Shown: positions 36,001 to 40,858 of the stretch, piece by piece
Layout of the letters: each line of letters opens with the position of its first letter
Position numbering within the stretch: position 1 is the stretch's first letter
Origin: Chthonomonas calidirosea
GTDB lineage: Bacteria > Armatimonadota > Fimbriimonadia > Fimbriimonadales > Fimbriimonadaceae
Direction of reading: 5' to 3'
Assembly: GCA_945859975.1 (NCBI GenBank)
Contig: CAMAPH010000025.1
Span: 1-40,858, forward strand
Length of the DNA stretch: 40,858 nucleotides
Position numbers: made by a program

Positions 36001-39000
36001 TTCCGTCGGCGGTCCCGGAACCATGTACAAACTGTCCGAGCAAGCGGTAAACCTCGGCTTCGCCAAGGTTGTTTCGCTCGCCGCCCTGCTCAGCATCTCC
36101 GTTGGAATCTTCAATCTGCTTCCGATCTATCCGCTCGATGGCGGGCAAATGGTCGTGGCGTTCGTGGAGATGCTGCGCGGCGGCAAGCGACTCAGCATGC
36201 GGCTCCAAGAGCTCATCGGCACCGTCGGCTTCGCCATGGTCCTCCTGCTCTTCGTAAGCGTGCTGATAGTCGATGTCAAACGCTGGATGCCCAAAGGCGA
36301 TCCCGGCCCGGCGCTGGTCGCACCGACGAAGAAGTAGTCGGTAGGGAAGATCGTGAAGGCTTTGCTTACGGTCGATTTCAGTAGCGCCGGCCTGCTGATG
36401 GTGCTGGCCATCGCAATCATCTTGGTGATTGCGGACGTTTTTCTGATCGAGTTGCCCGCCAAACGTTGCCAATTTGTGGCTCCCTCAAGAGAGTACGTGG
36501 TCTTTCCAGCACTGGCTGCAATGGCTGTGGGTTACGGAGTTTTCGAACTGCGTTACGTTCTTTTCCGCGCCAAACAGCCGATGCTCGATTATTGGGTGCT
36601 CGGAATTTATTTAGCTATGATCACTATATTCGCGATCTCTCGACTACTGGTATTGAGGCGAACGTGCCTGATGGGTGGGTGACGTGAGCTGGAATCTGCA
36701 GAGACAGAAAGTAAGCGTTCGCAGACTGTTCTCATAATTTCCGCGCTCAAGTTTTTCGGAGATTGGGAGCGATAATCGGGCACCTACAGTACTGCCCACG
36801 CACGACTTTTTCAGCGCATACGTGCGTGCACCCGAGCTGCGAATCGCGGGTACCGTCGTGGCAACGGTCTTGATTTTCAACAGGGGCGGTCTGCGAGCAA
36901 ATGTCGCCAGTAACCGAGAGCGTGAGATGGAATCGAAACCCTAAACTTTTCGCCTCAATCGCGGCCGAGATACTGCACGTTGCCGCAGAATCGGGTTGCT
37001 GCTGGCTTTGGGCTGGGAAGTTATGCCCTGCGAGTTTTGGCTTGCTCGTATCCGACGCTTCGATTACACTAACCTTATGGTATTGCCGATCCTTGCCGCG
37101 ATTGTCTCGCTCGTTCAGACAACCGAGTCAGAACTCGTTATCAGCCGGACGTCCGTAACTTGGATTGACGCGATACCAGGCGATTCGGAAATGCGAACAA
37201 CCAAAGAGACCACGGTAACAAGGTTTTATTCCGATAAGTTCGTGTCGGAAACAAGATCAAATCAAAGTGAGGCGGTCAATTTTGTCGAAACTTCCTCAAC
37301 TGGAACCAAAGCTTGGTCCCTAGAAGGCGACGTAAAGAAGGCCGTTTTCGAATTACCCGGAAAGAAGTGGTCGTCGAAATATGAAGCTTCCAAGATCGTA
37401 TCCGAGCTAGTCTCGCATTTGAAGAACCCAAACGCGGCTTTTACTGCCGATGGAAACCAATGGTTTAAGACGAAAATCTCAACCAGAACGCAGGATCTGC
37501 CGCGCGTACCAGGGGTCAAATTTCCTTGGGAAAAAGTCCAAACATCCCGCCACGAACTATCCAGCGCGCTGCTAGAAGAAATTATCGGTGCGACCCAGAG
37601 CAGCATGATAGCCATCGAAAACGGCAACCTTGGGCAGACCATCTCCTTTACGGTGATGACGGACTTCCGCGTGACCGGGAAACTTGCCCCAAAGACCTGG
37701 AACTAACGGCTGGTCTGACACCTGCGCGGATAGTCCGCAGGTTTCGGACCCGCCCAGCCAACCGGCCGGACGGGAAAAACCACCCTCACGTCGTCAGAAT
37801 CAGCACCTTCGCGACCGTCGTCCCGGCGAAACGCAGCGGCGTCACCTGCCGGACCAGCCACGACTTGCCGTCGTGAACCAAGCCCGACCCCACCGGGGTT
37901 GGGTCGTCGTAGGGAACATACAAGGCCCGAATCGGGCGCAAAACCGCGTCCGCCTCGTTTGTCGTCAGGAAGTCACGGTATCGACGCGAAGTAGCAATCA
38001 ATCCCTTGCGAGTCGCCCCCGAAACTACAAAGCTGTCGCCAAGGCGAAGAATCACCGCCCGAAAGCGTTGCTGCGCCGCCGTCACGTCGAGAGCACCCCG
38101 CCGCCTTGCGTCGCCGCGCCGGTGCGCCAAAACGGCATCATCCGCGCCATGCCCTGAGCCTTGAGACCGCTCGGATCAGCCAGGTCCCGAACCGGCGGAC
38201 GAAGTTCAAACCCGTCCACCGACACCGTATCCGCCGCCCCAACTTCGCGCAAGCGCTCCGCCAATGCCTCCCCGGCAATCCATTCCGTCGCGCCGAGATT
38301 GCAAATCGCGAGCACTCCGGAGTTGGAACCGCTCACTGCGGAAGGCTGCAAGCTCGCCTCCAGCGCCGGAAGTACCTCGTCAATCAGGGCCTGAAGCGCG
38401 GCGTCCTGGTCAGAACCAGAAACGCCGCACTTCGCCTTGATCCGGACTAGGCTGACGCTAAGCGCCACGCCCGTTTCACCCGTTCAAGTGCAAGCACCAA
38501 CCAACGTCGAAGCTGCTCCTTCCAGCGCGCCATCAAGAGAAGCCTCCAAAGGCGGTCTGCCAAAGCCCGTAGCCAACGTTGTATCGGCCGCGAACCCCGT
38601 AATAGAACCGATCTCGCATGAAGGCGCTCTCGGCCCCCGAACTCTGATCGAGCGCATCGAACTCGACCGGAACGTCGCTTCGCTGCTGCAAAATCATGCT
38701 CCGAATCGGCCGCGAGCTATCCAGCAAGAACCAGTGGTTCGCCGATGCTCCGTTCAGGAACGGCGAAACCACCACGTTCAGCCGACCCTGCAGCATGTTC
38801 TTGTATGGCGTACTCGCCGCAGTATCGACCACGTTGCCCGCGTACACCACGACCGGGCTTTCCACCAGTTCCATCGCCGTCCACTGCAATGCCGGTCCGA
38901 CCAGCAGCGTGTCTGGCATCGTTCCAAGCGGAACTCCCGCATCGTCCGGAACGAGCATCATCGCGCTGATCCCCGCCGTAATCGCCTCCGCGCTCAGCGC

Positions 39001-40858
39001 CGCCGCTGAGCGATTGCTCACGGCGGCACCGTTGACCGGGTGCGATGAACTGAAGAAAGAAACGCCATCGTGCCCGAGCGCCGTCGCGCCCGCCACGAGT
39101 CCTTGCACCACCAACTGGTGCCGGTGCGCCGCCACTCGCGTAGCCAAGTCCCGGACCCGCAGCCGAATCAGGTCGAGCTGGTCGTCCTCAATCGCTTTGC
39201 GATCCACCGCAATCGTTGCTTCAAAGGTCTTGTCCTCGATGCTCGTCGCGAAGGCGCTTAGTCCTTGCGGTGTGCGCTCGTCCAGAAACTCGCGCATCGC
39301 CGGCGGAGAACCAAGCCACGCGTACTTCTGCACCGGTTGGGTGGTGTTAATCACCGTCGCCAATCGCTCGGCAACGCTGTTGTCCATCACGTTTTGGTAA
39401 GCCGCCGCAAACTCCGCACGGAGTCCAGGCAGCAAAAGGGTCGGAATGTCAGATCGGGTTAATGCCATAGGGTTTACGAAACGTGGTTGTCGATCCGAAC
39501 GCGCACTCCTGCCACGCCGGTAGAGGTCATCTCAAGGCCAACAATGCGGCCGATCTTGTAGTTGTTGGTAAGCCCAGAAGTCGAAACCTGAACCTCCCAA
39601 TCCGTGTTTGCGTACACCTCGGCACCAAGGTTGGCGAGCGTCGGTGTAAAGCCCGAGGCGGCTTTGAAAACGAACGAGCCCGACTTAGCGGCGTTCAGTT
39701 TCTTCGCCCCGGCTTCTCCGGCCGAGTTGTCCGCCGATTCCGTCGCGACGCCAACGAACTTCAGGTTCGCCGTGCCGTGGGCCATAGCGACCGCGTGGCC
39801 GTCGGAGTTCAGCCCCAGCAGGGCTCCATTGTAGATCGCGGCGTTAGTCACCGCGTAGCCGATGATGAGTCCCGGCTTTTCGTATGTTTCGAATGGTTTT
39901 GCAAGTGCAGGCATAAGGTTTATCGCTGTTGAGCAATCGCGCTCAGGGAAACGTCAGGGAAGTGGCGGCGATAGAATTCCGCTTCTTCCGGAAGCAAAAG
40001 GTGGTTGGAGAAGTCAGCCTTTTCCGGCACGAGTTGCTTGGTGAAGTCTCGGCTCGGCATCTGCTGAATCAGCTCCTGCGCCAGCAAGCGAATCGGAACG
40101 GACTTGCCGTCCACATCCATCACTTCGCGGCTGCGAAAAAGCGCCGTCGCGGCGGCCCGCTGGCAAGGCAGCAGGCGACCCTCTTTGATAAAGCGGTCAG
40201 CTTCAACCTTCGCCAGCTGGTTCTCCCGCTCGTTTCGAAGTGCTTCATAAGCCATCCGAAAGTCGATCGGATCAATCGTCGTCGCCTCAAACCGAATGAG
40301 GTCGTCGTGAAACAGCCGCGCCGAGGCAACGCGGGGATTTCGCACCACCGAAACCTCACGAATCGCGGTGAGATCTTGCGAAATCCCGAGCGAAAGCGCC
40401 CCGGCTCCCGATTTGTCAATGAGCGCGTTAGCCTCTGGCGAAAGCGAGAGCACGCCGAAAAGCTCGTTCTCCACCGCCTCGACCTCAATGAGAAATCCAA
40501 GCTGAAGCGGAGATTCCGCGTGCTCCACCAAAACGGGAACCGGATCGCTGAATCCGTTCGCCAGCGCCTGCAAGGTTTCCGGCGCAACCGTCACCCCTTT
40601 GTCTGGGTAGTCGCCCGCCTCGAAAAGTTTCGCCCGGCGCCGCACCCAGTCGGCCCCTGGTCCTTTGTCAAGAAAATCAATTGACTGCATAGTCAAAGAA
40701 TAGTAGACAAAGTTCTACTAAGTCAACCATGAAAATCGAGAAAATTTCCGAATCGTTATCCAGGGGCCCAAAAGTCTTTTCGGTTAGGGAAGAGTTCTGT
40801 CCCGACAGACACCGCCATGATGACTTCGGCAAGACAGCTGAGCGTTTCTGCCTTCACG

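Follow-up and report, generated by a model that had tools for sequence, protein, structure and literature searches.

In work on the SaPI operon I, host LexA reportedly controls the packaging genes of a phage-related element directly. SaPIs are mobile and use helper capsids, whereas at the locus described here the host's own fixed genes would encode the whole head. RcGTA (activator GafA) and CcGTA (GafYZ, RogA) are domesticated, split and vertically kept head and packaging genes under a dedicated activator, as appears to be the case here; in the accessible text of the sources, the effect of LexA on RcGTA is indirect and runs via CckA, while the repressor of CcGTA is RogA, a protein without cleavage residues (PMC6363796, PMC9638019, PMC9632790). 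In contrast, putative LexA boxes here lie directly on the candidate activator gene and the head operon, the genes are of Mu type and not alphaproteobacterial GTA genes, and tail genes were not found. The available part of bioRxiv 10.1101/2025.02.11.637232 describes cf-PICIs as mobile islands of 10-18 kb with integrase and replication genes and no lysis genes, which package their own DNA and release tailless heads that take phage tails. The present module likewise has genes for capsid, protease, portal, terminase, connector and neck adaptor without a tail. It differs in being fixed in the chromosome and often split, in having endolysins in four families, and in that no integrase was recognised in the subset of module ORFs whose lists were read by eye. 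LtrA of the Ltr family (Sigma70_r4) in Gram-positive phages, about 130 aa long and encoded upstream of terS, is proposed to bind repeats there and, acting at the terS promoter, to switch on the genes for packaging and lysis (PMC3753634, accessible part). In the literature searched on a LexA motif, GTA, prophage, capsid or terminase of Armatimonadota, the box, the regulator and the module were not described; subscription papers and supplements were mostly outside this search, and a motif table may exist. The accessible text of PMC4072686 reports an integrative prophage that is unrelated.

The window, i.e. the whole stretch of 40,858 nucleotides analysed here, is best read (probability about 0.68) as part of a LexA-controlled feed-forward circuit for a tailless DNA-packaging module, acting both directly and via an Ltr-like activator. 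DNA damage would lead to LexA cleavage, as in the canonical SOS mechanism. Loss of LexA would free the head-operon promoter, where the box is predicted to block the spacer between -35 and -10, and likewise the promoter of a second, unlinked gene, whose product is a basic sigma70-region-4 protein of 138 aa that probably descends from a phage late-gene activator. This protein would then activate promoters with the element GGTTGAC, namely those of terL-portal, of the head operon and its own. What would result is a Mu-type head with a portal and a neck cap but no tail. Since no phage genome or replication module is linked, the cargo is most likely host DNA, in a GTA-like particle that may borrow phage tails.

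The survey's finding had described a three-gene head operon. The operon has five genes, all on the minus strand, as connector and neck stopper follow downstream of the capsid gene. The first gene, g01887 (39920..40690), is predicted to encode a Mu gpI-like head maturation protease/scaffold: H57, S100, E112 and S114 are invariant, the atlas neighbours are Mu-like_Pro, and PHROG 976 matches 42 of 46 family members, though not the copy in this genome. It is followed by g01886 (39474..39914), a virion structural protein (PHROG 1731, E 2e-20) which, judging from its position, is probably a head decoration protein. The Mu gpT-like major capsid protein is encoded by g01885 (38533..39468; PF10124, E 4e-55; PHROG 371) and is about 35% identical to the nearest phage capsids; exact patterns, which have low sensitivity, found no capsid relatives in viral contigs. 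A possible gp6-like head-tail connector (38082..38468) matches PF05135 at E 0.017, below the cut-off, and its position after the capsid gene is conserved. The last gene (37786..38130) encodes a predicted neck stopper (head closure) protein, for which the AlphaFold2 model (pLDDT 88) has phage neck proteins as best structural matches (9jlf_C: Z 9.9, rmsd 3.4, 87 aligned). Sequence searches of solved structures gave nothing significant for protease, connector and stopper.

Upstream of g01887 lies GTAGAACTTTGTCTAC on the minus strand (40703..40718), with one mismatch to GTAGAC-N4-GTCTAC; the SOS-type box that the survey's finding had placed here is thus present. Its end is 12 nt from the g01887 ATG (40690). 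This putative LexA operator, proposed from sequence and conservation, fills the spacer between an extended -35 element GGTTGAC (40722..40728, minus strand) and a -10 hexamer TATTCT (40697..40702, minus strand; 9 of 12 matches in the promoter scan). Since the -10 is 6 nt 5' of the ATG, the head-operon transcript would be leaderless. Seven sites with at most one mismatch exist in the genome, all intergenic, which agrees with the survey's count; other spacers yield 0-6 sites. Under a matrix built only from the module promoters of relatives, the box ranks second genome-wide. By count, a single site is unremarkable: 48 of 100 window shuffles contain a site at 2 mismatches, and in four of five relatives the reversed-pattern control yields at least as many sites across the genome. 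The matrix scan gave 9 real and 11 reversed sites, which weighs against the preferred reading. Genome-wide counts, not being above the controls, were rejected as evidence for the box, and its case rests on position and conservation. The consensus GTAGAAC-N2-GTTCTAC was also rejected, its matches being mostly intragenic noise.

The head operon is boxed in 33 of 57 family loci (at most 2 mismatches, up to 300 nt upstream of the orthologue match), while dinucleotide shuffles predict 0.22. The conservation seen earlier (16 of 27 loci, 0.27 expected) is thereby reproduced in a fresh sample. The box occurs in 20 of 34 genera, or 19 of 34 when the first locus per genus is taken; the genomes sampled are related, so these counts are not independent events. 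Control spacers of 2, 3, 5 and 6 gave 1, 2, 0 and 1 loci, versus 33 with spacer 4. Exact sites are present in genomes G386 and G394. Conservation of the direct box extends to only about 60% of family loci, and the 24 of 57 loci without it count against the circuit. The right half-site GTCTAC overlaps the -10 and runs into TACTAT, as it might if the box were a leftover or by-product of a conserved promoter and the module a Mu-like prophage or satellite that is decaying or can still move. This reading is very improbable and already largely refuted: the dyad is conserved in its two halves and its 4-nt spacing, whereas its offset from the -35 varies by gene, being 8-9 nt at the head operon and 28-34 nt at the regulator. 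With its fixed spacer, it overlaps either the start or the stretch between -35 and -10.

Other sites link the box to DNA repair. In this genome, two Y-family polymerase genes, MPG and nrdJ have an intergenic site with no more than one mismatch in front of them, and recQ, rmuC and uvrD have one at 2 mismatches; relatives have the box upstream of uvrA and Y-family polymerases. Genes that bear the box thus include dinB, imuB, uvrA/D, recQ, rmuC and nrdJ. Among lexA genes with an SLRG helix in families f6, f19 and f22, 15 of 16 carry the N4 box (0-2 mismatches) in their own promoter, versus 0 of 36 lexA genes with other recognition helices, many of which share a genome with the SLRG type. Because the box stands at repair genes and at lexA of one helix type, GTAGAC-N4-GTCTAC is very likely an undescribed LexA operator, belonging to the host LexA with the recognition helix SLRGVTVHL. 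The survey's placing of the head operon in the host SOS regulon is supported by this repair regulon, by the SLRG lexA genes and by the position between -35 and -10; it was incomplete, as a separate boxed regulator appears to be the conserved control point.

The own-family lexA promoters fit less well. None of the 30 has the N4 box at 2 mismatches, which counts against LexA ownership, and all 30 have a half-site, at spacings of 3, 9 or 18. Also unfavourable are the SLRG lexA genes of families f2, f8, f15 and f27, with half-sites only, and recA, which is boxed in just 11 of 30 family loci; in this genome the two halves of the recA site are only 2 nt apart. The gaps at lexA and recA would suit a box of a damage repressor other than LexA, or a sigma4 protein that is a repressor or feedback damper, so that the head operon would be SOS-linked only via its own box. 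The generic helix-turn-helix fold of the regulator, with archaeal 8hno at the top and no RinA or ArpU model match, points the same way. Such an arrangement is rather improbable, since in genomes with two or three coexisting lexA genes the box follows the SLRG helix, since the box at the regulator is swapped elsewhere for a known Gram-positive one, and since terL promoters have a fixed -35 without a consensus -10.

The regulator gene (contig C9, 1792-2208) encodes the 138-aa sigma70-region-4 protein. Of the 75 family genomes in which protease or terL was found, 69 have it, as against none of the 46 others. It is boxed in 27 of 29 family loci and all 17 genera; control spacers gave no more than 2 loci. 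Its site is the top genome site under a matrix built without own sites. On this sequence evidence, the conserved point of putative SOS control is the separate small regulator that travels with the module, a stronger link than the direct box. It is unlinked to the module in this genome and most others. In four genomes it adjoins terS or terL: in G135 it immediately precedes terS, in G336 it immediately precedes terL, and in G153 and G281 it and terS point away from each other. A core host gene follows it at 28 of 28 other loci, and this core gene has neither box nor regulator in 20 of 20 module-less genomes. A role of the box in serving the zinc-ribbon/TPR gene downstream of the regulator was considered and rejected. 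Two regulator homologues, in G209 (a truncated copy) and G255, have no box and no protease match, and distances correlate only modestly with those of recA and lexA (rho 0.24-0.44, with several p >0.05; recA-lexA itself 0.44); both observations count against the proposed link. The regulator nevertheless quite probably controls the module, and would do so, somewhat less certainly, as an activator.

Homologues of the regulator have 137-161 aa, a pI of 7.7-10.3 and a C-terminal sigma70 region 4 domain or fold. Structure comparison placed the archaeal factor 8hno in the top row, and Foldseek gave no match at E 0.001. The protein resembles LtrA, as far as described in the accessible part of PMC3753634, in being small and basic, with a C-terminal sigma region 4 domain and a gene beside terS in some genomes. 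It differs in being host-fixed and usually unlinked to the module, in having a LexA box instead of phage cI, in standing before a core host gene, and in that its proposed target is a single candidate GGTTGAC element and not a shown repeat region. A further difference is that its sequence matched neither the RinA nor the ArpU models.

Outside the family, the operator before the regulator changes. Of 35 such loci, 13 have the GTAGAC box and 15 have CGAAC-N4-GTTCG, the known Gram-positive LexA box; one has both, and 0.10 and 0.23 are expected by chance, respectively. The remaining 8, with neither box, count against the circuit. The two boxes are both palindromes with an AC-N4-GT core. Where only Gram-positive-type LexA is present, the regulator has CGAAC in 8 of 9 genomes and GTAGAC in none; where only SLRG-type LexA is present, it has GTAGAC in 3 of 6 and CGAAC in none. 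In the other classes the regulator never carries a box whose LexA type is absent from the genome. Further CGAAC sites in these genomes lie in front of uvrA, of a Y-family polymerase gene and of the lexA operon. The swap at the same gene points to LexA as the owner of the box. In the model for LexA motif change that is set out in the accessible text of PMC8565304, lexA duplicates and the recognition helix changes; here too the new motif is tied to a duplicated lexA with an altered helix, the difference being that some genomes keep two or three LexA types side by side and that the module regulator appears to have moved between their regulons.

About 25 kb from the head operon, the same module has the terminase large subunit gene terL (11981..13258, minus strand; PF03237, PF17289, PHROG 2) and a Mu-type portal gene (10915..12012, minus strand; PF06074, E 6e-61), single copy in the genome. 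The survey had seen no box before this pair, and terL is indeed boxed in 0 of 29 family loci; the separately boxed regulator is a possible answer. A GGTTGAC element (13287..13293, minus strand) lies 35 nt 5' of the terL ATG, without SOS box and without consensus -10. This combination of a fixed -35 element and no consensus -10 is as expected if an activator is needed. The element is common to the head-operon, terL and regulator promoters, and is a candidate target of the regulator: [GA]GTTGAC was found upstream of 43 of 57 head operons, 21 of 29 terL and 23 of 29 regulators, versus 2 of 30 lexA and 2 of 30 recA genes. It may be a mere sigma-70 -35 element, which would count against the circuit. 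GG as a general prefix of -35 elements was rejected, as it occurs in only 5 of 30 leaderless-type promoters, two of them the module's. An AAA_25 gene with GGTTGAC at its -35 (contig C44, 19271-20272) was rejected as module helicase, being present in only 19 of 121 family genomes, some of them module-less.

The phage-derived structural genes show, in their sequences, vertical inheritance under purifying selection. The dN/dS is about 0.02-0.06 on four genes (one close pair each), the head-gene tree (FastTree) sorts by family, and most genomes have just one copy of the module. Families f6, f19, f22 and f26 have the head, neck and terminase genes in one contiguous block, whereas in f1 the module is divided between three places, each surrounded by host genes. 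The absence of the module from 46 of 121 family genomes, and distant protease matches in ordinary prophage contexts such as G129, would suit the decaying or mobile prophage mentioned above; the single copy, divided between three places in the host chromosome, a dN/dS much lower than 1, the family-sorted tree and closest phage capsids at only about 35% identity argue strongly against it.

No tail sheath was found in this genome. Among five near-closed genomes, baseplate J was matched in 2, tape measure in 1 and tail completion in 0; these matches are unlinked to the module, and divergent tail genes could be missed. A 5-sequence profile found no terS in 5 genomes of f1 and f15, and no module lysis gene was found in this genome, both of which count against the packaging circuit. 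Four other families keep terS and endolysin, with an endolysin match at the module end in G060, G198, G260 and G141. Prophage induction coincides with SOS timing. The same wiring could serve phage interference, with SOS-induced heads and necks soaking up tails, portals or phage DNA upon prophage induction or infection. This timing, the retention of connector and stopper though tail genes were not found, and the apparent lack of terS and module lysis genes in the own family are in its favour. It is unlikely all the same, as 65 of the 75 module genomes have retained terL and portal alongside the head genes, and terS and endolysin in the four other families fit the release of filled heads.

For the packaging circuit, that the product is a DNA-transfer particle has slightly less than an even chance. 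A fuller scenario is more doubtful: an ancient host-owned system in which damage acts via a domesticated late activator to give tailless Mu-type heads with host DNA, made infectious by phage tails, the activator having been rewired several times between two LexA regulons and always SOS-controlled. This would be a GTA built like a cf-PICI. The GTAs known so far have no more than an indirect connection with SOS. With the switch named, over-expression of the 138-aa gene or mitomycin C should reveal the nature of the particle, and a candidate tailless GTA would test whether hosts, and not only satellites, practise tail piracy. A LexA motif is offered for a phylum for which none was found described in the literature searched, along with an example from nature of a regulon changing hands once lexA has duplicated. 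The two LexA operators alternating before the same regulator across the phylum are strong comparative evidence for long-selected damage-induced particle production. The tamed, tailless head genes and their apparent control by LexA, both direct and via the regulator, suggest that many Armatimonadota make virus-like particles on purpose upon DNA damage.

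The head operon (five genes starting with the protease gene g01887) is preceded on the minus strand by a GGTTGAC element (40722-40728), then by the 16-mer box (40703-40718) and a TATTCT hexamer (40697-40702), with the ATG following after 6 nt at 40690. The survey's finding had placed the 16-mer correctly; its observation of a box before the head operon was confirmed overall, and its reading as an SOS box is supported and is extended by the regulator gene described below. The best symmetric form is GTAGAC-N4-GTCTAC, a putative LexA operator. With at most one mismatch it occurs seven times in the 3.1-Mb genome, always between genes, versus 0-6 sites for other spacer lengths. 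By itself such a count is weak evidence, and in four of five relatives the genome-wide count was not above that of a reversed-pattern control. With at most two mismatches, the box precedes the head operon at 33 of 57 family loci, representing 20 of 34 genera, against an expected 0.22; near relatives carry the label Fimbriimonadaceae, phylum Armatimonadota. No box precedes the terminase-portal pair, as previously noted, and terL has one in 0 of 29 loci. Outside the family, the box was found before the protease gene only in genus g29 of family f15, where it overlaps the -35; in other lineages the protease gene usually has an internal position in the module.

The best box of the genome is located on another contig (C9:2223), 5' of a gene (C9:1792-2208; L246/L283) for a basic protein of 138 aa (137-161 aa among 26 members) with a sigma70 region 4 helix-turn-helix, here called the regulator. 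In the atlas, the clusters closest to it consist of phage Sigma70_r4 proteins. The regulator is present in 69 of the 75 family genomes with protease or terL vs 0 of the 46 with neither, counted in incomplete assemblies after two weak protease and eight distant terL matches were dropped. The box is found at 27 of 29 regulator loci. The gene lies directly 5' of terS in genome G135 and of terL in G336, and is divergent from terS in G153 and G281; elsewhere in the family it lies 5' of a core TPR gene (28/28 other loci). The TPR gene occurs in 113 of 121 family genomes, and in 20 module-less genomes it had neither box nor regulator upstream. Exceptions are a truncated, unboxed regulator copy in G209 and an unboxed copy in G255, both genomes being without a protease match. 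The G255 homologue (L354) adjoins a tRNA-like sequence and phage-like ORFs; it perhaps lies in an element that is still mobile and akin to the ancestor of the module.

The regulator profile matched 60 of 301 phylum genomes always in single copy, and these belong to nine families in which the module also occurs. CGAAC-N4-GTTCG is the Gram-positive LexA box. Among 35 of the 44 regulator genomes outside the window's family, the regulator locus had the GTAGAC box (at most two mismatches) in 13, the CGAAC box (at most one mismatch) in 15 and neither in eight, one locus with both being included in the 13 and the 15; 0.10 and 0.23, respectively, were expected by chance. Where only Gram-positive-type LexA was found, the regulator carried CGAAC in 8/9 genomes and GTAGAC in none; where only LexA with an SLRG-type recognition helix was found, it carried GTAGAC in 3/6 and CGAAC in none, the helix of G105 and G114 being assigned from genus and score. 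In genomes with both types either box occurs. Downstream of perfect CGAAC sites in such genomes lie uvrA, genes for a Y-family polymerase and a DEAD helicase, and the lexA operon, besides genes unrelated to these; one-mismatch CGAAC sites precede terS in G198 and G230. Because the surveyed genomes are related, independent operator swaps are probably few.

Of the seven sites in the window's own genome, two precede polymerase genes, one DinB-like and one ImuB-like (the latter divergent from MPG); the other five precede nrdJ, a gene of the glyoxalase family, an unknown gene, the head operon and the regulator. Intergenic two-mismatch sites precede recQ, rmuC, uvrD and others without a link to repair; the genes found 5'-flanked by sites in relatives include uvrA and those for Y-family polymerases and methyltransferases. 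Under a matrix of 66 module-promoter sites from relatives, the C9 site scored best, followed by the window site and then the imuB site; the site of a uvrA-like gene (so labeled by sequence likeness) ranked sixth. The helix SLRGVTVHL is invariant in LexA of the family. Families f6, f19 and f22 have two or three lexA genes per genome, and there the N4 box was found in the promoters of 15 of 16 lexA genes with this helix vs 0 of 36 with other helices. Against the SOS reading, in the window's family it was found in 0 of 30 lexA promoters; half-sites were found in all 30 (spacings of 3, 9 or 18), which we infer to provide weak autoregulation via degenerate sites, and lexA promoters of f2, f8, f15 and f27 are similar. 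In lexA promoters of the family (e.g., C13:15764-15793 of the own genome) the half-sites are laid out as GTAGAC-N9-GTATAC-N3-GTCTAC around the -10 and never take the N4 form. As a further point against, the box precedes recA in 11 of 30 family loci. A perfect GTAGAC-N3-GTCTAC is located 5' of a 4Fe-4S protein gene (C2:143906-143920). For a third type of LexA, whose helix is SPNGVAKHL, the gene's own promoter contains the palindrome GGTGTAA-N4-TTACACC (L385/G004, L392/G222, L393/G198 and, not in full register, L384/G267), probably a second undescribed LexA box. In G333 and G138 (L231, L235, L236), one-mismatch boxes coincide with, or are close to, the starts of DNA methyltransferase genes and of an unannotated gene; methylation systems there are possibly under SOS control.

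The element [GA]GTTGAC was found upstream of the head operon (43/57), terL (21/29) and the regulator (23/29) vs lexA and recA (2/30 each). Before terL it lies mostly 32-35 nt 5' of the start, with the consensus -10 absent. Such a fixed, -35-like element would suit a protein with a sigma4-type domain, but it may be an ordinary sigma-70 -35. Regulator promoters of f6, f22 and f43 (e.g., L342, L329, L351) share TTGAC-N8-GTGAAC (16 of 35 loci), GTGAAC recurs 5' of terS in G060, G198, G153 and G281, and TTTTGCATA is common to regulator and terS promoters in f26; these are candidate lineage-specific regulator targets.

The head operon encodes a protease/scaffold (PHROG 976 in 42 of 46 members), a virion protein, a Mu gpT-like capsid protein, a connector (weakly supported) and a neck stopper whose fold matches phage necks (Z 9.9); about 25 kb from it, the window also encodes terL and a Mu-type portal. 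Two small ORFs just 3' of the terL-portal region (9061-9824, minus strand) appear HEPN-like or antitoxin-like by impression; a Pfam scan of one gave no match. The protease query matched 73 of 121 family genomes and 97 of 301 phylum genomes, some of these being weak prophage matches. Among the matches listed, the module is largely contiguous in f6, f19, f22 and f26, in the order terS, terL, portal, protease, virion protein, capsid, connector, stopper, small ORFs, endolysin. In several modules of the window's family and f15, the capsid gene is separated from the connector gene by one or two small ORFs (L095:8581-9095, L096:8250-8770, L100:8025-8312), possibly holin-like or scaffold remnants; there are none in the window, and a PHROG search of three gave no match. 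Families f8, f13, f27 and f29 have head modules that are more distant, a few of them rearranged or present in two to three copies; the regulator search gave no match there at E 1e-8.

That the module is domesticated is well supported. dN/dS is about 0.02-0.06 for four module genes (one close pair per gene). In a tree built with FastTree from 68 concatenated head sequences, with two short rows of the window's family excluded beforehand, f2, f6, f13, f19, f26 and f29 are each monophyletic, f15 and f22 have one stray copy each, and the window's family clusters with f2. Correlations of module-gene distances with those of recA or lexA are modest. No sheath gene was found in the own genome, and tail markers in five closed genomes were absent or unlinked (baseplate J 2/5, tape measure 1/5, tail completion 0/5).

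In the proposed mechanism the regulator would be under LexA repression, joined in about 60% of the family by the head operon; after DNA damage the regulator would switch on the terL-portal and head genes. In size, charge and domain, and also in its ancestral position, the regulator resembles the LtrA phage late activators, but those are under phage cI, whose place host LexA would take here (PMC3753634). The gene set matches that of the tailless heads of cf-PICIs, from which the module differs in being fixed in the chromosome (bioRxiv 10.1101/2025.02.11.637232). The activator logic is that of GTAs, although the LexA effect on those is solely indirect (PMC6363796, PMC9638019, PMC9632790). The role of the particle is the least certain step. 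The main rival is a particle for phage interference; terS and lysis genes were searched for in the window's family and not found, which is unaccounted for by the transfer and interference models alike. The favored reading is that the particle would serve as a vehicle for the transfer of host DNA, perhaps with borrowed tails.
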